DNA of 64,000 bases from an uncultured Methylomirabilota bacterium (GTDB lineage Bacteria > Methylomirabilota > Methylomirabilia > Methylomirabilales > 2-02-FULL-66-22). This document shows, piece after piece, positions 11,424-61,299 of this stretch. Positions within the stretch are counted from its first letter, which is position 1. Each line of letters begins with the position of its first letter. The notes below the pieces were generated by a model. That model was given only the letters and a program-made list of their open reading frames with translations, was not told the origin of the DNA and did no database searches. Position numbers and translations under genes: made by a program. The stretch lies in NCBI GenBank assembly GCA_963705305.1, contig OY970067.1, positions 1,088,001 through 1,152,000 of the forward strand. Direction: 5' to 3'.

Positions 11424-13748
11424 GTGGAGATCTTACGTGTCTACCGCCTACTCCGAAGGATGCACCAGTACCCGACCCTGGTGGCCGTCATGCGGAGCAT
11501 CTTCCTGGACGTGCTTGAGCAGCGGGGTCTCGACAGCCGCGAACATTTGGCCGCCCGGGCCCTGGAGGAGATGGCCAAGGACGGGATCCCCGACTCGGAG
11601 GCCAACCGGCAGGAGTATCTCGAAGCCTTCATCGACACCGCCGTGGCGCAGCACCTGAATTCCAGCGACATCGAAAACTACATCAATCTGGCGCGCAAAC
11701 GGGAGAATGCCCAGACGCTGAGCCGGGTCGCCAACCGGGATCAGGCCACTACCGAGGAGGTGCTCCGCGCCCTGCGCGAGTTCTGCGACATCCCCAAGGG
11801 GGAGGTCTACATCTCCCAGGAGGAGGCCGAGGGGATCCGGGTGGCGCTGATCTCGCGCTTCATCTCCAACCAGCTCCCCTTCATCAGCCTGGCCAAGAAT
11901 TACATCACGATCCGGGACACGGATGCCCTCCTGCGCAACACGCTCGTCAGCTACCGGCGGCCGGGAAAGCTCGGCGGGAAAGCCGCCGGGATGATCCTGG
12001 CCCACAAGATCCTCCTGCCCACCCTGGAGAAGAAAGACCCGGAGCTGGAAGCGCTGGTCCACGTCCCTGACACCTGGTACCTCAGCTCCGGGATATTCTC
12101 CGAGTTCCTGGACCGGAACAACCTCTACCTCTTCCACACCTTCAAGTACAAGGACCGGGAGAGCATCGAGAAGGACTTCCTCCGGATCGAGGAGCAGTTC
12201 AAGGCCGCCACCTTCGATCCGGACGTAGTTGAGGACTTTCGCCGGATCCTGACGGAGATCGGAGAGCACCCCATCATCGTCCGCTCCTCCAGCATGCTGG
12301 AGGACAATTTCGGCCTGGCATTCTCCGGCAAGTACCTGTCGGTGTTCCTGGCCAACCAGGGTGACCTGGAGACGCGGCTCCGCCGCTTCATCGGCGGCCT
12401 CAAGCAGGTCTTCGCCAGCATCTTCGGGCCCGATCCTATCCTCTACCGCCGAGATCACGGGCTGCTCGATTACGACGAGCGCATGGCCATGATCGTGCAG
12501 AAGGTGGTCGGCCGCCGCTTCGGCGACTACTTCTTCCCCTTCGCGGCGGGGGTCATGTTCTCCCGCAACGTCCACACCTGGAACCCAAAGATCAATAAAG
12601 AGGCGGGGCTCGTCCGTCTCGTTCACGGGCTGGGCACCCGTGCCGTGGATCGGGTCGGCTCCGATTACCCCCGCATGGTTCCCCTCAGCCATCCCCAGCT
12701 CCGCCCCGAGGTGACCGCCGACCAGATCCGGAAATACTCGCAGCGACAGGTGGACGTCCTGAATCTCAGGACGGACGTCGTGGAGACGCTAGACTTCCGG
12801 AGCCTCTGCAAGTCGGTCAACCACCCCGACCTGTTTTACGCCGTGTCGGTACTCGCGCACGACCATCTGGCCCCGCCGCTCTTCAAAACACAGGACCTGT
12901 CCGGTCCGGAGCTGTGCCTCACCTTCGACAACCTGCTCGCCAAGACCCCCTTCGTCCCGCTCGCCCGCAAGATCCTCTCGCGGATCGAAGCGGTCTACGG
13001 CCGGCCCGTGGACATGGAGTTCGCCTGGGATGGGGACAAGCTGTACCTGCTCCAATGCCGCTCTCTCTCCATCCGCAAGGAGCTGGAGAAGGTCGAGATG
13101 CCCGAGGCGGTTCCCCCGGAGCGCGTGCTGTTTACCACCCAGTCCGGACTGTCCAACGCCGTGGTCCCTGACCTGGAATTCATCGTGTACGTCAACCCGC
13201 GGGCCTATGACCAGCTCCCCACCCAGGAGGCCAAGCTGAAGATTGCCGGGGTGGTCAACGTGCTCAACCGCCACCTGGCCGGGCGGCGTTACACACTCAT
13301 GGGCCCCGGACGCTGGGGGAGCAACGACATCAACCTGGGCGTTCGGGTCACCTACTCGAACATCAACAAGACCAAGCTCCTGGTCGAGATCGCCTTCGCC
13401 AAGGAGGGCTACACCCCCGAGGTCTCCTACGGCACCCATTTCTTCCAGGACCTGGTTGAGGCCGATATCGTCGTGGCCACCCTGTTCCCCGACGACCCCG
13501 GCGCCCACTTCAACGAAGAGTTCGTGGTGGGCTCCGAGAACCTTCTGGGCGCCATCGCGCCCGAGGTTCGGGACTGCGAGGACGTGGTCCGGGTCATTCG
13601 GGTCCCGTCCGTCCGCCCCGGGGAGTATCTGCAAGTCTACATGGATGCAGCCAGCCGCCGGGGGCTCGGCGTGTTCGGGCCGCGGCAGAACAGCGATCAT
13701 CGGGCCAGTCGCAGCCTGGATGCCGTTCCCTCGCTGGAGACCAGCTAG
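11424..13748 (+). CDS. PEP/pyruvate-binding domain protein (PEP synthase/PPDK N-terminal ATP-grasp-like); start uncertain
   Basis: GGKAAG, IVRSSSMLED, FSGKY, GLGTRAV, PVDMEFA, LLQCR, GPGRWGS, EVSYGTHFFQDL. Confidence 0.85.
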   Translation: MEILRVYRLLRRMHQYPTLVAVMRSIFLDVLEQRGLDSREHLAARALEEMAKDGIPDSEANRQEYLEAFIDTAVAQHLNSSDIENYINLARKRENAQTLSRVANRDQATTEEVLRALREFCDIPKGEVYISQEEAEGIRVALISRFISNQLPFISLAKNYITIRDTDALLRNTLVSYRRPGKLGGKAAGMILAHKILLPTLEKKDPELEALVHVPDTWYLSSGIFSEFLDRNNLYLFHTFKYKDRESIEKDFLRIEEQFKAATFDPDVVEDFRRILTEIGEHPIIVRSSSMLEDNFGLAFSGKYLSVFLANQGDLETRLRRFIGGLKQVFASIFGPDPILYRRDHGLLDYDERMAMIVQKVVGRRFGDYFFPFAAGVMFSRNVHTWNPKINKEAGLVRLVHGLGTRAVDRVGSDYPRMVPLSHPQLRPEVTADQIRKYSQRQVDVLNLRTDVVETLDFRSLCKSVNHPDLFYAVSVLAHDHLAPPLFKTQDLSGPELCLTFDNLLAKTPFVPLARKILSRIEAVYGRPVDMEFAWDGDKLYLLQCRSLSIRKELEKVEMPEAVPPERVLFTTQSGLSNAVVPDLEFIVYVNPRAYDQLPTQEAKLKIAGVVNVLNRHLAGRRYTLMGPGRWGSNDINLGVRVTYSNINKTKLLVEIAFAKEGYTPEVSYGTHFFQDLVEADIVVATLFPDDPGAHFNEEFVVGSENLLGAIAPEVRDCEDVVRVIRVPSVRPGEYLQVYMDAASRRGLGVFGPRQNSDHRASRSLDAVPSLETS

Positions 13749-13787
13749 CCCGCAGTATTCGTGAGCCATGCTCATGAATACTGCGGG
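13749..13787. terminator. Long hairpin between convergent genes
   Basis: CCCGCAGTATTCGTGAGC...GCTCATGAATACTGCGGG near-perfect inverted repeat immediately after the stop codon. Confidence 0.55.
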
Positions 13788-13892
13788 AATGGCCACATCC
13801 CAATTGGTCATTTGTTCAGATAACTCACAAACCCCTTCGTGAACTATCCGGACCAGACCCTTTCGGCCGGCCGGAGGTTGTCCCGCCGGGGC

Positions 13893-16296: not shown

Positions 16297-16327
16297 CGGA
16301 CATTCTCCCCAGGACAACAGATCCTGG

Positions 16328-16556
16328 CAGGCTGCTGAAAAAGACCCATCTGCCGGGTACCCACCTGATGGGTGCCCAGCCTTGGGCCGGGTACCCGCAC
16401 GCTCGGGCGCTCGCTGCGGCGTACCGGAAGTACGCCTTGACCCGCCTGTGGCGGGTACCCCGCCCCGGGTACCCATCCCGAGGGATGGGTGACGCCGCCT
16501 TGCATCTGGGTCCTTTTGAGCAACCTGGGCGAAAAGTGGCTTTTCAGCATTCGGCT
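16328..16556 (-). repeat. MITE-like dispersed repeat, copy A
   Basis: CAGGCTGCTGAAAAAG...CCTTTTGAGCAACCTG inverted ends; internal GGGTACCC/CCCATC..GATGGG palindromes shared with copies B-D. Confidence 0.85.
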
Positions 16557-36602: not shown

Positions 36603-37430
36603 CTATGCCGACCACCCGGCGGGCTCGCACGCTCGTTCTGCCGCCTGGTGGCCCGGCAGGGAGGTGTCCCACCGGAGGGCAACCAGCCGTTTTCCGGTCG
36701 TGGAGGCCGACGCGTCCGAAGCCAGCCAGAGCAGGGGGGCTACCATGATTTCCGGGTCCAGCAGCCGCTGCCGCGCCTCCTCGGACAGGCCGTCGGGGAT
36801 CATGCCCGTGTTGGAAGCGCCGCCCGGGAGAAGGGCATTCACCGTGACCCCCGTCCCGGAAAGCTCCTGCGCCCAGATGATGGTCTCGGACTCCAGCGCC
36901 GCCTTGGACGGGCCGTAGGGCGAAAAGCCGACCCGGCGCATGGTTTCATGGTTGATGCTGATGTTGATGATGCGACCCCACCCCTGCCGCAGCATCTGCG
37001 GCACCACCGCCCTGGCCATCAAAAAGGGTCCATTGACGTTGGTGTCAATGATCATACGCCAGATGCCGGGATTCGCCTCCCAGAACCGGGTCGGCTGCGT
37101 CAGGAAGGCGGAGCTGATATACCGCATACCGCGCCCGGCGTTGTTGACAAGGATGTGGATCGCGCCGAAGCTCGCCATCGCCTCGTCCGCCACGGCGCGG
37201 CAATCCGACTCCCGGGCGACATCCGCCAGCAGCGGCCTGGCGCGTCCGTCCCCGGCCAGCCGATTGGCATCGTCGGCCGCCTGACGGATCTGGGCCACGC
37301 TCTCTGCGGCGGTCGCCACCACCCGTGCCCCCGCCCGCGCCAGCCCCATCACCATCGCTCGCCCCAGGCCGCGTCCGCCGCCCGTCACGATGGCCACTCT
37401 GCCCGAGAGTCCCGGCGCCTGTCCTGTCAT
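36603..37430 (-). CDS. SDR family oxidoreductase
   Basis: TGGGRGLG, LVNNAG, YGPSK, VNALLPGG. Confidence 0.88.
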   Translation of the reverse strand: MTGQAPGLSGRVAIVTGGGRGLGRAMVMGLARAGARVVATAAESVAQIRQAADDANRLAGDGRARPLLADVARESDCRAVADEAMASFGAIHILVNNAGRGMRYISSAFLTQPTRFWEANPGIWRMIIDTNVNGPFLMARAVVPQMLRQGWGRIINISINHETMRRVGFSPYGPSKAALESETIIWAQELSGTGVTVNALLPGGASNTGMIPDGLSEEARQRLLDPEIMVAPLLWLASDASASTTGKRLVALRWDTSLPGHQAAERACEPAGWSA

Positions 37431-37450
37431 TCTCTCGCCCTCCAGAGCCC

Positions 37451-37648
37451 CTAAAAGGGTAATGAAAAACTCGTTTTCGCTCAGGCTGCTCAAAAAGGTC
37501 CAGCTGCAAGGCGGCCCGCAAAGCGCGGGGCACCCGCCACGGGCGGGTCAAGGCGTACTTCCGGTACGCCGCAGCGAGTGCCCGAGTGGGCGGGGTACCC
37601 ATCCGAAGGATGGGCACCCATCAGATGGGTACCCGGCAGATGGGCCTT
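37451..37648 (+). repeat. MITE-like dispersed repeat, copy B (left part, interrupted by the intron)
   Basis: CAGGCTGCTCAAAAAGG...CAGATGGGTACCCGGCAGATGGGCCTT, matching copy C up to the insertion point. Confidence 0.85.
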
Positions 37649-39628
37649 GTAGAGTCAAAGTGGAGCGCGGTCCTGCGCTCGCCCTCGAATCGGTCGCCGC
37701 ACGCGGCTACTGGAGACCACGACGAAGCACCAGACCGTTTCCCCACTCTGCTCATCGAACCGTGCGTGCGGTATTCCCGCACACGGCTCTCGGACGGGTT
37801 TCACACCCCGGCATGCGCAGGCGGCGCCAGACGGACACCGCGCAGCGAGAACACCCCCAGCTCGCCAAACACCCGAGCGAGGCGGAACCGCCGCGTCCCT
37901 CGCGAGGGGACCTTGTGCCGACGCCGCAGGAAGTCGCGCACGCGCTCATAGACGTAGTGGTCCACCGCGCGGTAGGCCAGCCAGCGCGTCCCGTAGGAGA
38001 AGTAGTGGGCCCAGCCCCGGAGCACGGAGTTGAGATCGACCACGATCATCTCCCAGGGCGCCTGGTTGCCCGGCCGGAGGATTCCCCGGATGCGCCCCTT
38101 GACCCGCTGCACCGCCTTCTTGGCGGGCGCGGCCCCCAGGTACCCATGCCCATCCTTCCGGTAGTGCAGCGGCCCGAAGGTGTAGCCCAGGAAGGTGAAC
38201 GGCTCGCGCCGCCCGTCGACCACCCGGGTCTTCTGCTCGTTGAGCGTCAGCCCCATCTGGGTGAACCAGCGGCGCGTCTGCGCGAGGACCTCGGCTGCCC
38301 CATGCTGGCACAGGATCACGAAGTCATCCGCGTAGGAGATGAGCCGCGCCCCGTACCGCCGGTCGAGCCCCCGCAGGCGAAAGACTTTCAGGAAGCGGTT
38401 CATGTAGAGGTTGGCGAGCAGCGGCGAGACACATCCGCCTTGCGGCGTGCCCCGCGTGCTCCGCTTCCCCCCGCTGAACCGCCACCCGCCGCCGTCGGCC
38501 CGCTCCGCCACTGGCGCCTTGAGCCACCGCTTGAGCAGCCGGAGCAGCCGGCGATCGCTCAGGCGGCGGGCCAGCGGTTGCATGAGGTCGGCGTGTGGAA
38601 TCGAGTCGAAGTAGCCCGATACGTCGGCGTCAATCACCGCGGAGTGCCCGGCGCACAGCTCCCGGTGCACTGCCTGGACGGCCTGCAAGGCCGTGCGCCC
38701 CGGCCGATAGCCATAGGCCGTGGGTGCCAGGTCCACCTCGAAGATCGGTTGCAGGATCAGCAGCGCGGCGGTTTGGACCACCCGGTCTCGGATGACAGGA
38801 ATCCCGAGCGGCCGCTCCCCGACCCCGCCCGGCTTGGGAATGCGCACCCGCCGCACCGGTTGCGGCCGATACGTCTCGGTACGCAGCGCCTCCTGCACTG
38901 CGGCCAGCCATGGCTCCACCCCTGCCGCCTCGATGTCCGCGAAGGTCACCCCGTCCACGCCCGGCGCGCCCCCGTGCTGCTTGCTCAGGGCGTAGGCATG
39001 GGCCAGGACGTCCAGGCGGTACACCTTGTCGTACAGGAGGTAGAAGCGGTAGGCCGGCTCCTGCTTGGCCTTGATGTAGAGCGCCTCTTGGAGCCGCCGG
39101 AGCTTTGTTGGAGTTGCCAGGCTCACGCCAATCTCCCACCCCTTGACTCGGTGCGACGCACCCCGAACCAGGGTCCCTTCCCTCCCCACCGGTTGTGTTG
39201 TCCGATGGGTACCCGCGGTACTGTGGACCCCTCCGACGCCCAGAGCCGCCCCCACCCCAACGATGGGGCGAGGGGCGCGACCCCTCGCGGCGTTGGGCCT
39301 CCCGTGTTGCGCTCTGCTCTCTGCCGACGTGCCACGCCCCATACCCCGGTGAGGGACTCCGTCGTCATCGGTCGGTTGCTCCTACGGAGCCGGCGGTCTT
39401 CCCTGACTGAAAAGCAGGTCGACCCTCACGACAGCACTTTCGAGGCTTGCCCAGGCTTCACGCATGTTGCGGCCCGTCCGCTTGCGGACCCACCCACGGT
39501 GGGCCCCTGTCCCGAGGGCTTCGGCCAGTCGGTTACCCTCCTTGCCGCCTCGGTAGCTACTGGGGTGTACCGACAACTCCCCAGGCCGGACTTGCACCGG
39601 CAAGAGCAAAGCGCCTTTCACGGCGCGC
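37649..39628 (-). mobile_element. Complete group II intron (1,980 nt, IIB-type bacterial class, endonuclease-less)
   Basis: 5' GCGCGCCGTGAAAGGCGC; domain V GAGCCGTGTGCGGGAATACCGCACGCACGGTTC (37789-37757); domain VI with bulged A (37655); 3' end ...GACTCTAC; flanks rejoin to GGGCCTTTTTCAGCAGCC. Confidence 0.93.
37801..39126 (-). CDS. ltrA: Group II intron reverse transcriptase/maturase
   Basis: RFYLLYDKV, APGVDG, RRVRIPKPGG..ERPLGIP..RDRVVQ, GTPQGG..SPLLANLYM, YADDF, X domain (LRGWAHYF); no HNH domain; GTG start inferred. Confidence 0.93.
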   Translation of the reverse strand: MSLATPTKLRRLQEALYIKAKQEPAYRFYLLYDKVYRLDVLAHAYALSKQHGGAPGVDGVTFADIEAAGVEPWLAAVQEALRTETYRPQPVRRVRIPKPGGVGERPLGIPVIRDRVVQTAALLILQPIFEVDLAPTAYGYRPGRTALQAVQAVHRELCAGHSAVIDADVSGYFDSIPHADLMQPLARRLSDRRLLRLLKRWLKAPVAERADGGGWRFSGGKRSTRGTPQGGCVSPLLANLYMNRFLKVFRLRGLDRRYGARLISYADDFVILCQHGAAEVLAQTRRWFTQMGLTLNEQKTRVVDGRREPFTFLGYTFGPLHYRKDGHGYLGAAPAKKAVQRVKGRIRGILRPGNQAPWEMIVVDLNSVLRGWAHYFSYGTRWLAYRAVDHYVYERVRDFLRRRHKVPSRGTRRFRLARVFGELGVFSLRGVRLAPPAHAGV

Positions 39629-39644
39629 TTTCAGCAGCCTGCTA
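39629..39644 (+). repeat. MITE-like repeat copy B, right terminus (5' exon of the intron)
   Basis: TTTCAGCAGCCTGCTA, identical to the end of copy C. Confidence 0.85.
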
Positions 39645-39740
39645 AGCGCGCGGGGCGCCTCGGCCGCCCCCTCGCCGGTCCCCGGCACGGCGGGGCCGCT
39701 GGCAGGGGGGCGTAAATTGCAGAAGGTGTCAGCGCACCCT

Positions 39741-40850
39741 TCAACGCAGGCCTTCCTCCGCTTTGGCGATCACCGCTTCCGTCGGCAGGCACTGGTCGAA
39801 CCCGTGGGGCGGATACAATCGGAGCGCCTCCCTGGCATGCTTCAGGGAAGCGGTGAGTTTTTCCCTGCGTACAGTCACGTCGTCCGTGACCGCGGCCTCC
39901 GCCAGCAGATCGATGGCCAGCAGATGCTCGATCCAGGCCGTGCGCTGGGGGCAGTAGCCGCGCGGGCGCGAATAGCAGATGGTGACACCGCTGTCGCCGC
40001 CGGTCTCGCCGGCGGGCAGGTCGCGGACATTGTCCAGGTAGCGGTAGAAGTCGTTCTCGTACGGGCTCAGGTCCGCCTGCGCCGCCGCGGTCTTCGACTG
40101 GATGCAGCCTTGCGGCGTGAACAGGTCCTGCCTCATCAGCCGGATCAGTTCACCCTGGTAGTAGAGCGCGTGGCCGTTGTCCGGATCCAGCGCCAGAAGC
40201 TCCCGGATATCGGCTTGCACGGCCGTGAAATCGGGCTTGCCGTTCTGCAGCATGGCATCCCGGGCGGCGGCGAAATGGGTCTTCAGTGCGCCGGCGAGAT
40301 GGACCATGCGCACGGGCGGGCATCTATCGCGGTACACGATCACGCCGGTCACGAGCAGGGCCGCGACCACAACGACAGGGATCCAGAGTCTGCGGGGTTT
40401 CCGCCGCGCCACCGGCATGGACGACGGCCTGCCGGTTCCGGAGGCTGTCCCGTCCAGCAGGCCGCGAACGGTCTGCGCCAGCAATTCGAGATGCGGCGCC
40501 AGCGGCGGTCGGAAGGCATCGAGCCACTGGGTGGTGCCTAGGAAATATTCCATGGAACCCGCTGGCGCCACATCCTCCAGGCGAACCGGGATGATGTCCA
40601 CGCCCTTGGCCACCGCGCGCTCCACCTCGCGCAGCACCTGGGGCGAGCCGTTGGAGCGGCCGCTGAACAGCAGCACCATCACGCGGCAGCCGTTGATGCC
40701 CTCGATGATGGAGCCGCCCCAGTCGTGGCCCGGCGGGATGTCTCGCGGCGCCATCCACACGCGGATGCCGGCATGCTCCAGCGCTGCGCACACCTGCGCG
40801 GCGACCTGGTCGTCCTTGCTGGAGTGGCTCAGGAAGACATCGCGTGCCAT
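39741..40850 (-). CDS. TIR domain-containing membrane protein
   Basis: VFLSHSSKD, VWMAPRDI..G..W, SPQVLREV, IIPVRL; TM segment LWIPVVVVAALLVTGVIVY; Cys-containing TPR-like C-terminus. Confidence 0.85.
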   Translation of the reverse strand: MARDVFLSHSSKDDQVAAQVCAALEHAGIRVWMAPRDIPPGHDWGGSIIEGINGCRVMVLLFSGRSNGSPQVLREVERAVAKGVDIIPVRLEDVAPAGSMEYFLGTTQWLDAFRPPLAPHLELLAQTVRGLLDGTASGTGRPSSMPVARRKPRRLWIPVVVVAALLVTGVIVYRDRCPPVRMVHLAGALKTHFAAARDAMLQNGKPDFTAVQADIRELLALDPDNGHALYYQGELIRLMRQDLFTPQGCIQSKTAAAQADLSPYENDFYRYLDNVRDLPAGETGGDSGVTICYSRPRGYCPQRTAWIEHLLAIDLLAEAAVTDDVTVRREKLTASLKHAREALRLYPPHGFDQCLPTEAVIAKAEEGLR

Positions 40851-47502: not shown

Positions 47503-47822
47503 CTAGTGTAATCCGTCCAATGCTTCTTTACTTTTGCGGGGCCGTCATGCCGGCGAAAGCCGGCATCCAGGGTGCCCCGCAGGTTGCTCAAAAAGGCGCA
47601 GATGTCCCTCGACTTCGCTCGGGACCGTGAGCCTGTCGAATGGCAAGGCGGCCTCACCCATCCCTCGGGATGGGTACCCGGGCCGAGCACCCGCCGCAGA
47701 CGGGTCAAGGCGTACCTCCGGTACGCCGCAGCGAGTATCCGAGCGGGCGGGGCACCCATCCGAAGGATGGGCACCCATCAGATGGGTACCCGGCAGATGG
47801 GCCTTTTTCAGCAGCCTGCTAG
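47503..47822 (+). repeat. MITE-like dispersed repeat, copy C (composite, CTAG at both ends)
   Basis: Core CAGGTTGCTCAAAAAGG...CCTTTTTCAGCAGCCTGCTAG plus REP-like hairpin GTCATGCCGGCGAAAGCCGGCATCCAG (47544-47570) and a 39-nt cassette (47605-47643). Confidence 0.85.
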
Positions 47823-50177: not shown

Positions 50178-50354
50178 TTAGCAGGATGCTGGAAAACTCG
50201 TCTTCGCCCAGGCTGCTCAAGAAGGTCCAGATGTCCCTCGACTTGGCTCGGGACCGTGAGCCTGTCGAACGGCAAGGCGGCGCGCCGGGTACCCGGCCGA
50301 AGGCTGGGCACCCATCAGATGGGTACCCGGCAGATGGACCTTTTTCAGCAGCCT
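50178..50354 (+). repeat. MITE-like dispersed repeat, copy D
   Basis: TTAGCAGGATGCTGGAAAA...CAGGCTGCTCAAGAAGG...CCTTTTTCAGCAGCCT; 39-nt cassette at 50234-50272. Confidence 0.85.
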
Positions 50355-50356
50355 CG

Positions 50357-58871: not shown

Positions 58872-58973
58872 GCGCCCCCCGGTTGCCCTGGTCTCTACCG
58901 CGCGAAGACCGAAGGGCCGGCTGCGGACCCCCGGCCGGCTCCTCGGGTGCGTGACGGTCGCGGTCGATTCAGG

Positions 58974-60122
58974 CTAGCGAACCAGCTGCCAGTTGCCATT
59001 CGTGATGCGGACCATCACGAAGGCGTCCTCGGTCAGCCCGTTGTGATCCTGCGGCGAGAAGTTGAACTGCCCGTCCGTGGCCCAGAAGCCCCGGATCTTC
59101 TCCAGGGCGTCCCGGATGGCGGCGGACTGGGCCGACTTGGCGTCCTGGATGGCGCGGGTCACCAGCATGATGCCATCCCAGGCGTGGCCGCCGAAGGTCG
59201 AGACCGGCTGGTGGAACTCCTGCTCGTATTTGCGGCTGTAGTCCGTGAGGAGCGCCTTCTCCGGGTCGCTGGCCGGGAGCTGGTCCGCCACGATCAGGCG
59301 GCCTGCCGGCAGGAGGATCCCCTCGGCGTTCTTCGCGCCCGCCAGCTCGATGAACTTCATGGAGGCCACCCCGTGGCTCATATAGAGCGGGAGCGTGATG
59401 CCCAGCTGCACTCGGTTGCGCGCGATGACCGCCGGCCCGGGGTTGGTCCCCCAGACGACGATGGCCTGGGCGTCAGCGCCCTTGATGCGGGTGAGCTGGG
59501 CGGTCATGTCGGTGTCCTTGGGGCCGTAGACCTCGTCGGCGACGATGGTCATCCCGGCCGGACCCGCCACGGCCTGCAGCTCTTCCCGCCCCGCCGCGCC
59601 GAAGGCGTCGGAGACTGTGAGAATGGCAATCCTCTTGATCCCCTGCTGTGTGGCATGTTGGTAGATCTTCTTCACCGCCAGGAAGTCGCTCTGCGGGGTC
59701 TTGAAGACCCATGGCTTCACCGGATCCACGATCTTCTTGGCGGCGGCGCAGGAGATCAGGGGGACCTTGGCGGCCTCGAAGCGGGGGATGATGGCCAGGG
59801 TGTTCCCCGAGGTGCTGGGCCCCACCACGGCCACCACCTGGTCCCGCTTCAGGAGCCGGTCGGCGGCCGTCACGGCCTTGGTGGCGTCGGTCTCGTCGTC
59901 GTAGATCACCAGCTCCACCGGGCGGCCCAGGAGGCCGCCGGCCCGGTTGATATCCGCCTCCAGCATCTTGGCCGTGTTCCGCTCCGGCTCTCCCAGGAAG
60001 GAGGCCAGCCCGGTGACCGAGAAGATGGCGCCGATCCGGATGGGCTCGGCGGCCGGGGCCGCACCCGGCAGGGCCGCCAGCACACCCACGGCCAGCAGAC
60101 ACATGACAAGCGACCTGTGCAT
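58974..60122 (-). CDS. ABC transporter substrate-binding protein (LivJ/K-like), copy 2
   Basis: Signal peptide, IRIGAIFSVTG, INRAGG, YDDE. Confidence 0.9.
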   Translation of the reverse strand: MHRSLVMCLLAVGVLAALPGAAPAAEPIRIGAIFSVTGLASFLGEPERNTAKMLEADINRAGGLLGRPVELVIYDDETDATKAVTAADRLLKRDQVVAVVGPSTSGNTLAIIPRFEAAKVPLISCAAAKKIVDPVKPWVFKTPQSDFLAVKKIYQHATQQGIKRIAILTVSDAFGAAGREELQAVAGPAGMTIVADEVYGPKDTDMTAQLTRIKGADAQAIVVWGTNPGPAVIARNRVQLGITLPLYMSHGVASMKFIELAGAKNAEGILLPAGRLIVADQLPASDPEKALLTDYSRKYEQEFHQPVSTFGGHAWDGIMLVTRAIQDAKSAQSAAIRDALEKIRGFWATDGQFNFSPQDHNGLTEDAFVMVRITNGNWQLVR

Positions 60123-60153
60123 GAGACCCCCTCTCTGCGTGCGTGACTGCGGG

Positions 60154-61299
60154 TTATCGGACCAGCTGCCAGTTGCCATTCGTGATGCGGACCATCACGA
60201 AGGCGTCCTCGGTCAGCCCGTTGTGATCCTGCGGCGAGAAGTTGAACTGCCCGTCCGTGGCCCAGAAGCCCCGGATCTTCTCCAGGGCGTCCCGGATGGC
60301 GGCGGGCTGGGCCGACTTGGCGTCCTGGATGGCGCGGGCCACCAGCATGATGCCATCCCAGGCGTGGCCGCCGAAGGTCGAGACCGGCTGGTGGAACTTC
60401 TGCTCGTACTCACCGCTGTAGTCTACGAGGAGGGTCTTCTGCGGGTCGCTGGCCGGGAGCTGGTCCGCCACGATCAGGCGGCCTGCCGGCAGGAGGATCC
60501 CCTCGGCGTTCTTCGCGCCCGCCAGCTCGATGAACTTCATGGAGGCCACGCCTGAGCTCATGTACAGCGGCAGCCGCACGCCCAGCTGCACTCGGTTGCG
60601 CGCGATGACCGCCGGCCCGGGGTTGGTCCCCCAGACGACGATGGCCTGGGCGTCAGCGCCCTTGATGCGGGTGAGCTGGGCGGTCATGTCGGTGTCCTTG
60701 GGGCCGTAGACCTCGTCGGCGACGACCTGGACGCCCGCCTGCGGCGCCGCCTCTTTGATGTCCTCCCGGCCACCGGCCCCGTAGGCATCCGAGGCGGTGA
60801 GGAGCGCCATGCGCTTCAGGCCCTTCTTCTGCAGATCCATGAGGATGCGCCGGGCGGCCAGGACGTCGCTGGCCGGCACCTTGAAGACCCATGGCTTCAC
60901 CGGATCCACGATGTTCTTGGCGGCGGCGCAGGAGATCAGGGGGACCTTGGCGGCCTCGAAGCGGGGGATGATGGCCAGGGTGTTCCCCGAGGTGCTGGGC
61001 CCCACCACGGCCACCACCTGGTCCCGCTTCAGGAGCCGGTCGGCGGCCGTCACGGCCTTGGTGGCGTCGGTCTCGTCGTCGTAGATCACCAGCTCCACCG
61101 GGCGGCCCAGGAGGCCGCCGGCCCGGTTGATATCCGCCTCCAGCATCTTGGCCGTGTTCCGCTCCGGCTCTCCCAGGAAGGAGGCCGGCCCGGTGACCGA
61201 GAAGATGGCGCCGATCCGGATGGGCTCGGCGGCCGGGGCCGGACTCACCAGCGTCCAGACCAGCAGTAGCACCGCCCCAAGACCTCCGATGACTCGCAT
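60154..61299 (-). CDS. ABC transporter substrate-binding protein (LivJ/K-like), copy 1
   Basis: Near-identical tandem paralog at 1,180-bp offset. Confidence 0.9.
   Translation of the reverse strand: MRVIGGLGAVLLLVWTLVSPAPAAEPIRIGAIFSVTGPASFLGEPERNTAKMLEADINRAGGLLGRPVELVIYDDETDATKAVTAADRLLKRDQVVAVVGPSTSGNTLAIIPRFEAAKVPLISCAAAKNIVDPVKPWVFKVPASDVLAARRILMDLQKKGLKRMALLTASDAYGAGGREDIKEAAPQAGVQVVADEVYGPKDTDMTAQLTRIKGADAQAIVVWGTNPGPAVIARNRVQLGVRLPLYMSSGVASMKFIELAGAKNAEGILLPAGRLIVADQLPASDPQKTLLVDYSGEYEQKFHQPVSTFGGHAWDGIMLVARAIQDAKSAQPAAIRDALEKIRGFWATDGQFNFSPQDHNGLTEDAFVMVRITNGNWQLVR

Follow-up and report, generated by a model that had tools for sequence, protein, structure and literature searches.

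The 64,000-nucleotide stretch of DNA analyzed here, referred to throughout as the window, comes from an uncultured Methylomirabilota bacterium (GenBank assembly GCA_963705305.1, contig OY970067.1, positions 1,088,001 to 1,152,000) and carries on its minus strand, from position 39628 to 37649, an intact group II intron of 1980 nt. Our analysis suggests, with a probability that we put at roughly 80%, that this is an endonuclease-less, IIB-like intron that homes to the inner edge of the 13-bp end-repeat of a YTAR-flanked miniature inverted-repeat transposable element (MITE), that its exon-binding sites EBS1 and EBS3 read this target, and that it has switched to the MITE from an older target. Comparison with related introns shows that the target is read by two pairings, one of 7 bp between EBS1 and the exon sequence GCUGAAA and one between EBS3 (U) and the A at exon position +1. 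Positions are those of the window unless the genome is named; nucleotides of the intron (nt) are counted from its 5' end and exon positions from the insertion point.

The intron and the repeat that it occupies

A first-pass annotation of this DNA had placed a group II intron without an endonuclease at 37649-39628 (-), and both parts of that assignment agree with our searches. Rfam model RF02003 (domain I) matches at 39603-39462 (-) with 99.4 bits against a gathering score of 49, and RF00029 (domains V and VI) matches at 37791-37649 (-) with 40.9 bits against a gathering score of 40, so that the domain I and domain V/VI structures that mark a group II intron RNA are both present. The boundaries were set by alignment with 64 related introns that begin with GYGCGCC and end with GACTCTAC. 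Group II introns have the end consensus 5' GUGYG and 3' AY; this one begins with GCGCG, with C at position 2 where farther members of its clade have GUGCG, and ends with CUCUAC, which fits AY. Domain IV encodes a reverse transcriptase and maturase of 441 amino acids (37801-39126, minus strand), identified from the translated open reading frame and from the Pfam domains RVT_1 (E=1.9e-33) and GIIM, the group II maturase domain (E=1.6e-14); the translation contains the motif YADD. The protein stops about 30 amino acids past GIIM, Pfam finds no endonuclease domain (D/En, HNH) in it, and relatives align to its residues 1-441. A BLAST search of the intron against its own genome, a single contig of 5.65 Mb, returned this copy as the only full-length one.

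Joining 37648 to 39629 restores GGGCCTTTTTCAGCAGCCTGCTA, which is the sequence of 47799-47821, and the earlier claim that removal of the intron regenerates another, intact copy of a repeat (copy C) is borne out. Allowing up to 3 mismatches, this 23-mer is found at two places in the window, of which 16325-16347 has 2 mismatches, and not at all in 100 shuffles. Excision restores the end of a 207-bp MITE with a TTAG duplication on each side, and the intron lies 13 bases into the end-repeat. The outer 13 nt of the end-repeat of this element (copy B), CAGGCTGCTGAAA, form the 5' exon side at 39629-39641 (-), as placed by a four-copy alignment and by the consensus of 130 ends, while the alignment places the other 194 nt, with the opposite end motifs, on the 3' exon side at 37455-37648 (-). 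One TTAG flank, recognized from the sequence and the flank consensus CTAG, occupies 39642-39645 (-), that is, exon positions -17 to -14; the other, at the far end of the element (37451-37454, -), is a direct repeat of 39645-39642. As had been counted before, the window holds four copies of the repeat. The three others are empty: copy C (47580-47818, +, left limit approximate) offers a perfect target, copy A (16328-16540, -, limits approximate) has one mismatch in the 3' exon part of the target, and copy D (50182-50356, +, limits approximate) ends in CGAGGCTGCTGAAA, with a single mismatch within the CAGGCT block, which the four-copy alignment confirms.

The repeat has the properties of a transposable element. 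The two outer ends are inverted copies of CAGG[C/G]TGCTGAAAAA, one of them is accompanied by a second, inner copy of the motif in which C replaces G, and the outer pairs delimit elements of 140-330 bp. The consensus of the four bases outside the 130 ends of the genome is CTAG. Identical direct 4-nt flanks are present in 22 of 58 outer pairs (CTAG/CTAG 15, CTAA/CTAA 4, TTAG/TTAG 2), and CTAA/TTAG combinations are absent from the 25 commonest combinations listed; the element has a target-site duplication, for which the CTAA/CTAA and TTAG/TTAG pairs are the informative cases. Its own genome contains 259 end motifs when up to 2 mismatches are allowed, and these form 112 pairs with a spacing of 75-325 bp (about 110 elements), and a 29-nt MITE end occurs in 19 of the 21 genomes of the genus, 90 times in its own genome and up to 182 times in one relative. 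Having inverted ends, duplications, small size, no coding sequence and many copies, the repeat is a true MITE. No autonomous partner with the same ends was found in its own genome, the relatives not having been searched for a transposase. The sole long pair of the outer end motif in its own genome is the intron-bearing copy B, and a looser scan finds two degenerate end motifs paired 5.6 kb apart.

Pairing of the intron with its target

The relatives of the intron protein (the best 80 of 275 confirmed were taken) gave 64 loci in which both intron ends could be defined and 48 non-redundant domain I sequences, which were aligned. A mutual-information scan of each intron column against exon positions -1 to -20, carried out with 44 intron/exon pairs, revealed exactly one covarying block, intron nt 217-223 with exon -1 to -7. 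The mutual information of this block is 0.56-1.49, the paired fractions from -1 to -7 are 1.00, 1.00, 1.00, 1.00, 0.95, 0.75 and 0.84, and there are up to 5 pair types per position; examples among the relatives are UGAAUAA/UUAUUCA, UAUGAGA/UCUCAUA and CGUUAAC/GUUAACG. In our intron the block reads UUUCAGU (39406-39412, -) and occupies positions 3-9 of the 9-nt loop of a hairpin, CCUG-CUUUUCAGU-CAGG at 39418-39402 (-), and its partner, the intron-binding site IBS1, is GCUGAAA (39629-39635, -), the last 7 nt of the 5' exon in the MITE end-repeat, assigned from the sequence and the covariation. The covariation proves that the loop at nt 217-223 is EBS1. The first-pass annotation had recognized this hairpin, whose loop is complementary to the 5' exon end, and the loop as EBS1, which stands on the covariation in the 44 pairs; its extent of 6 bp has to be revised, since the pairing comprises 7 bp (39412-39406) including a G.U pair at -7.

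For exon +1, the A at 37648, the column with the highest mutual information is nt 288 (39341, -), which is EBS3; it lies within a 3-nt internal loop and pairs with exon +1 in 38 of the 45 introns compared. All 12 MITE-type introns have U at this position, and G is present in a relative that is 82% identical (locus L022, whose contig is G003:C230). Next to EBS1, nt 216 (U, 39413, -) is delta, with delta' at nt 182 (A, 39447), across that internal loop; of 47 aligned introns, 44 have C-G and 3 have U-A at this pair, and nt 182 is A in the 12 MITE-type introns. With EBS3 in a coordination loop, where it pairs with exon +1, and delta' within the same loop as partner of delta, the arrangement is that of IIB introns. 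A IIA-style delta, with nt 216 facing exon +1, was also considered and rejected; it fits this intron (U-A) but not the relatives (C with C or U), and a IIB-type EBS3 at nt 288 gives the better fit.

Junctions at other loci and occupancy of the sites

Metagenome contigs scanned for the exact 20-nt 5' junction yielded 21 stretches, 13 of which are true junctions between MITE end and intron and 8 of which are chance matches in unrelated sequence. All 13 read YTAR-CAGGCTGCTGAAA up to the insertion point and GCGCGCCGTGAAAG beyond it, apart from L112, which has ACG for TAR, and the upstream flanks are different in all of them. EBS1 is UUUCAGU or UUUCAGC in 11 of the 13, with U288 and A182, and in domain I these 11 are 86-94% identical to this intron; L117 contains just 42 nt of intron, and L121 is rearranged after about 120 nt. 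The covariation and these 13 junctions with their different flanks support the earlier proposal of an intron aimed by RNA pairing at a high-copy non-autonomous repeat.

Several points weigh against this reading. Its own genome has 49 exact empty sites (the 17-mer CAGGCTGCTGAAAAAGG) and 1 filled one, the intron junction is found in 1 of the 21 genomes of the genus, and two 5' fragments of introns that are 90-91% identical lie in other, non-MITE sequence. The 13 metagenome junctions were read from the 5' side and, as far as such reads go, a MITE already carrying the intron could have transposed. TAG may be conserved only as the flank of the elements, its part in recognition being a deduction. 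Contigs of X1, X2, X4 and X15, compared with window 36900-40300, gave short pieces, none of which spans either intron junction, and the joint 37648-39629 that spliced RNA or an empty allele would have was not seen among these pieces; none of the 24 sequencing runs listed contains half of the sampled words, and the contigs of the soil metatranscriptome X15 that are about 90% like parts of the intron could derive from relatives or from DNA. The ratio of 1 filled to 49 empty sites, of which 34 are co-oriented with the fork, suggests that homing in this genome is rare, recent or repressed, so that of the notion of a supply of landing sites the abundance of sites stands, but they are scarcely used here.

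Another reading is that one MITE copy took up the intron once and the MITE transposase then spread the 2.2-kb MITE::intron. It would account for the presence of the intron at the same base in all 13 metagenome junctions and for their YTAR-like flanks (with the exception of L112, ACG), and the junctions were, as said, seen from the 5' side. We nevertheless consider it unlikely: domain I of the intron copies diverges by 6-14% from that of our intron, one filled copy is found among the roughly 110 elements of its own genome, a related Bryobacterales genome has near-identical introns before at least three unlike types of 3' exon, and EBS1, EBS3 and delta all match the site, which would be unnecessary if a transposase drove the spread.

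The GC skew of the genome places the origin near 1.82 Mb and the terminus near 4.14 Mb, and the intron is co-oriented with the fork movement deduced from it, a single case. In this one instance the orientation is what would be expected of an endonuclease-less intron. The G-type MITE ends themselves show an orientation bias, with 34 of the 49 empty sites reading in line with the inferred fork movement. The two 5' fragments are at genome positions 373264-373374 (+, 111 nt) and 494353-494391 (-, 39 nt), and the former is preceded by GAGCCTGGATTCTTCGC, which resembles the older target described below. Upstream of the junction in L118 there is a 45-bp palindromic mini-element, CTAG-CCCGGATTATTCA...CGAATAATCCGGG-CTAG, which abuts the MITE and shares its CTAG; the arrangement suggests that both the mini-element and the MITE families may insert at CTAG.

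A probable change of target within a wider clade

The nearest relatives have CGAAUAA or UGAAUUA as EBS1 and G at nt 288. They include G003 (83% identity over the full length), G007 and G008 (83% and 80% over the first 410-450 nt) and an intron from a Gemmatimonas-labelled metagenome-assembled genome (MAG) with 86% protein identity. None of the results depends on the unpublished genome G028. Relatives at 80-86% identity sit in TTAGCCCGGATTATTCG with C after the insertion point, in TAACCCGGATAATTCG before it, and in similar sequences, the CGAAUAA type in ..GGATTATTCG. Compared with the nearest relatives, this intron has a different base at each of the 7 EBS1 positions, a different EBS3 and a different delta pair, and all of these match the MITE end. 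Copies in unrelated targets had been named beforehand as what would speak against specialization for the repeat; homologues that share the EBS1 lie in the same target, whereas those at 80-86% with another EBS1 lie in a different but analogous one.

A logo of 65 distinct insertion sites of the clade shows Y at -17, T at -16 (52/65), A at -15 (58/65), R at -14 (55/65), C at -13 (56/65), C at -12 (54/65), C at -11 (52/65) and G at -10 (52/65); after G-10 the IBS1 is variable, and upstream of -17 the bases are mixed. The 13 bases that precede the intron recur in inverted form, with up to 2 mismatches, 8-580 nt farther downstream at 19 loci in 7 genomes, and at 16 of these loci the inverted partner is followed by CTAG, CTAA, TTAG or TTAA. 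A looser rule finds the partner in 23 of 59 loci, where by our own estimate about 0.5 is due to chance; the loci are not independent, because many of them come from two Bryobacterales genomes. Taken with the logo, these partners indicate that the clade, too, usually targets the inner edge of a 13-bp inverted repeat with YTAR flanks. Related introns with 58-86% protein identity, from several phyla, occupy the equivalent position in other inverted repeats that have TAG flanks. A cultured example is found on a plasmid of Mesorhizobium huakuii (62% protein identity, exon CTAGCCCGGAAAATTCA, EBS1 UGAAUUU), and the nearest plasmid-borne protein outside the clade is 38% identical among the matches listed (a spread of 40 out of at least 5000).

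The inverted partners raise the question of structure recognition as in IIC introns, by which a hairpin of the inverted repeats in single-stranded DNA would be needed and the sequence match would be secondary. The partners at the 19 loci are consistent with this, as is the tight palindrome in which the closest relatives sit. It is nonetheless quite improbable, given that the distance of the partner ranges from 8 to 580 nt, that IBS1 would be buried in the stem, that 36 of the 59 loci have no partner within 1400 nt (14-mer, up to 3 mismatches) and that the EBS1 covariation is complete.

Lineage members occur in MAGs labelled Acidobacteriota, Proteobacteria, Methylomirabilota and Gemmatimonas. 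Tentatively, and at slightly less than even odds, we suggest that a whole lineage of endonuclease-less IIB-like introns is specialized on the inner edge of the 13-bp inverted repeat of YTAR transposons, the protein reading the invariant TAG that results from the target preference of the transposon itself, EBS1 and EBS3 reading the repeat, and no EBS2 being needed. If this is true, a new MITE family would be reachable by swapping EBS1, EBS3 and the delta pair alone, as seen here.

Unfilled sites of the older type number two in the genome, one at about 13746-13800 (+) of the window and the other at genome position 4937088 (-); in both, TAGCCCGCAGTATTCG precedes a tight palindrome and AATGGCC-type repeats, and the latter site is an exact TAGCCCGGATTATTCG. 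The genome also contains, outside the window, a second group II intron that is 68% identical to this one, in two identical copies at G000:C1 about 1876271-1878270 and about 4098836-4100835. Both copies follow AAAAAAGGTACCGGACG, the homologous loop, UGUCCGG, pairs with CCGGACG, and immediately upstream of one copy the junction is partly duplicated.

The question of an EBS2

The first-pass annotation had further proposed AGCCUG (nt 172-177, 39452-39457, -) as an EBS2 pairing with CAGGCU at exon -13 to -8. The complementarity is genuine, being perfect over 6 bp and located 45 nt upstream of EBS1, but the exon-binding role does not hold, and we regard it as very improbable. Three observations rule it out: nt 173-176 belong to an internal helix (R) with nt 290-293 (39339-39336), whose four base pairs are present in 47/47, 47/47, 47/47 and 46/47 of the introns and show compensatory exchanges at one pair (G-C 41, C-G 4, U-A 1) and at another (C-G 35, U-A 11); the surrounding GAAGCYUGAGCAGGCCUCGAAAG is conserved in introns whose exons hold nothing like CAGGCU; and 4 of the 12 MITE-type introns carry AGCCCG in place of AGCCUG while their target is unchanged. 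A 6-mer complement of this kind arises by chance in 3.5% of shuffles in one register and in 8.3% in three.

The search for another EBS2 gave no consistent 5- or 6-nt complement of exon -7 to -17 in the domain I columns of the 48 introns. No intron column covaries with exon -8 to -17, the mutual information being at most 0.35 for columns that are at least 0.8 paired with at least 3 pair types; since these exon positions vary little, an invariant pairing could escape this test. The sequence CGGGC in GGCGGGCCGUAAC looked promising and was rejected, as it sits in helices P and Q. The topological place of EBS2 in IIB introns corresponds to a 12-nt internal loop between helices S and H, GAAAGUGCUGUC (nt 188-199, 39430-39441, -). 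This loop is GUGCUGUC in 10 of the 12 MITE-type introns and GUGAAGxx in relatives, and nt 195-196 are CU in 10 of the 12, against AA in relatives; speculatively, nt 195-198 (CUGU) could form four pairs with exon -14 to -11. The loop shows no covariation across the clade.

It is scarcely credible that the intron reached the MITE by a chance ectopic retrotransposition without specialization, for although it has a single copy in the genome and fragments of related introns lie elsewhere there, the 7 EBS1 pairs and the EBS3 pair form, the delta pair has changed too, and 13 further junctions are found at other loci.

Genomic neighborhood

The intron lies between two genes on its own strand, which encode a TIR-domain protein (41189-39741) and a short-chain dehydrogenase (37430-36603). 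Because these neighboring genes share the strand of the intron, read-through could supply the precursor RNA. Between the TIR-domain gene and the MITE flank there is a GC-rich inverted repeat, GGGGCG..CGCCCC (39650-39680, -), which may be the terminator of that gene; it is not found at the other 13 junctions. Elsewhere in the window, a segment is duplicated in tandem at 58972-61156 (period 1180 bp), the duplicates being 95-97% identical over two 300-nt stretches (families D1 and D2).

Proposed mechanism and its significance

Homing into the MITE end, the reading that we prefer, could proceed as follows. Read-through of the co-directional TIR-domain gene would supply the intron transcript, and at replication forks the intron would reverse splice into the template of the lagging strand, with nascent DNA as the primer for the synthesis of cDNA. 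EBS2 pairing would take no part in target recognition; the conserved T-16, A-15, R-14 and C-13 (the TAR being the MITE flank) may be read by the intron protein, much as T-15 is assigned to the protein in RmInt1 and RmInt2. The lineage probably reached the MITE from the older target TAGCCCGGATTATTCG by replacement of the 7 EBS1 bases, a change of EBS3 from G to U and a change of the delta pair from C-G to U-A.

This is a well-documented natural case of target change by a group II intron, in which the 7 EBS1 bases, EBS3 and the delta pair were exchanged but the distal TAGC of the target stayed the same, and the change separates the bases read by RNA from those that are probably read by protein. 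It further points to a distinct intron lineage in which homing into transposon end-repeats is a widespread strategy, one that extends to non-autonomous MITEs. An intron that apparently works with EBS1, EBS3 and a short protein-read motif would be of interest for targetron design, provided that a mobility assay confirms it.

Comparison with known systems

RmInt1, which homes into another mobile element, ISRm2011-2, is likewise endonuclease-less, with a 7-bp IBS1 (-1 to -7), a single-base EBS3 and a critical T-15 upstream of the paired region that has been assigned to the protein, as described in PMC4075523. According to the same source, its target lies within the insertion sequence (IS) instead of in an end-repeat, and its EBS2/IBS2 pairing (-9 to -13) is strongly selected.

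The IIC introns that insert behind terminator or attC stem-loops resemble this intron in having no usable EBS2 and in using abundant intergenic repeats as safe sites. They differ in reading a stem-loop and a short IBS1 (PMC8643678 and PMC3753933, in the portions available), where the present intron has a 7-bp EBS1 and an EBS3 and delta in a IIB-type coordination loop; its 13 junctions have unrelated upstream flanks and its best Rfam match is RF02003, so that it does not look like a IIC intron. The IIE and IIF introns are, as characterized in PMC3753933, also small, endonuclease-less and IIB-like, and their EBS2-IBS2 pairing is dispensable for splicing; they do show covarying EBS2-IBS2. A group II intron of Pseudomonas putida KT2440 is similarly tied to a short intergenic repeat, the repetitive extragenic palindromic (REP) sequence, with only 2 of its 9 copies at REPs and no pairing model in the table row that lists it (Tobes and Pareja 2006, PMC1525189). 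Titles and abstracts returned by our literature searches describe no group II intron that homes to MITE ends, nor do the accessible sections of PMC4853749, and the available main text of Toro and Martinez-Abarca 2013 (PMC3552965) offers no usable sequence signature for the open reading frame class.

The closest parallel is RmInt2 of Sinorhizobium meliloti GR4, for which we rely on the portions available of Martinez-Rodriguez et al. (RNA Biol 2014, PMC4615759). All its copies lie inside the inverted repeats of ISRm17, and its authors point out that inverted repeats double the number of sites; selection gave CTAGTTC at -16 to -10, with GAACU as EBS2, C-16 and T-15 were assigned to the protein, EBS3/IBS3 is U-A, and homing favors the lagging-strand template. 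Both introns are thus endonuclease-less and IIB-type, have the terminal inverted repeats of a transposable element as natural sites and use a U-A EBS3/IBS3 pair, and CTAG stands just upstream of the paired part in the selected target of RmInt2. The differences are that ISRm17 is an autonomous IS and the host of our intron a MITE, that RmInt2 has a 5-nt EBS2 (GAACU) and none was found here, that the TAG of our intron lies one base farther out (-16 to -14), and that the mobility of RmInt2 is published while this intron is known from sequence comparison. RmInt2 belongs to open reading frame class D, with the C-terminal motif LX3AX3PXLF[V/A]HW (PMC4615759). Our protein shares with that class the lack of a D/En domain; the motif PxLF[VA]HW was not seen in its translation, judged by eye and with no phylogeny, and its C-terminus reads ...FGELGVFSLRGVRLAPPAHAGV.

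Because RmInt2 homes into the inverted repeats of ISRm17 (PMC4615759, as far as available), the homing strategy as such is already published. What differs from RmInt2 is the combination of a protein and a domain I in which no class D motif and no EBS2 were found with a MITE as host and with a habit that is seemingly common to a lineage spread over several phyla.

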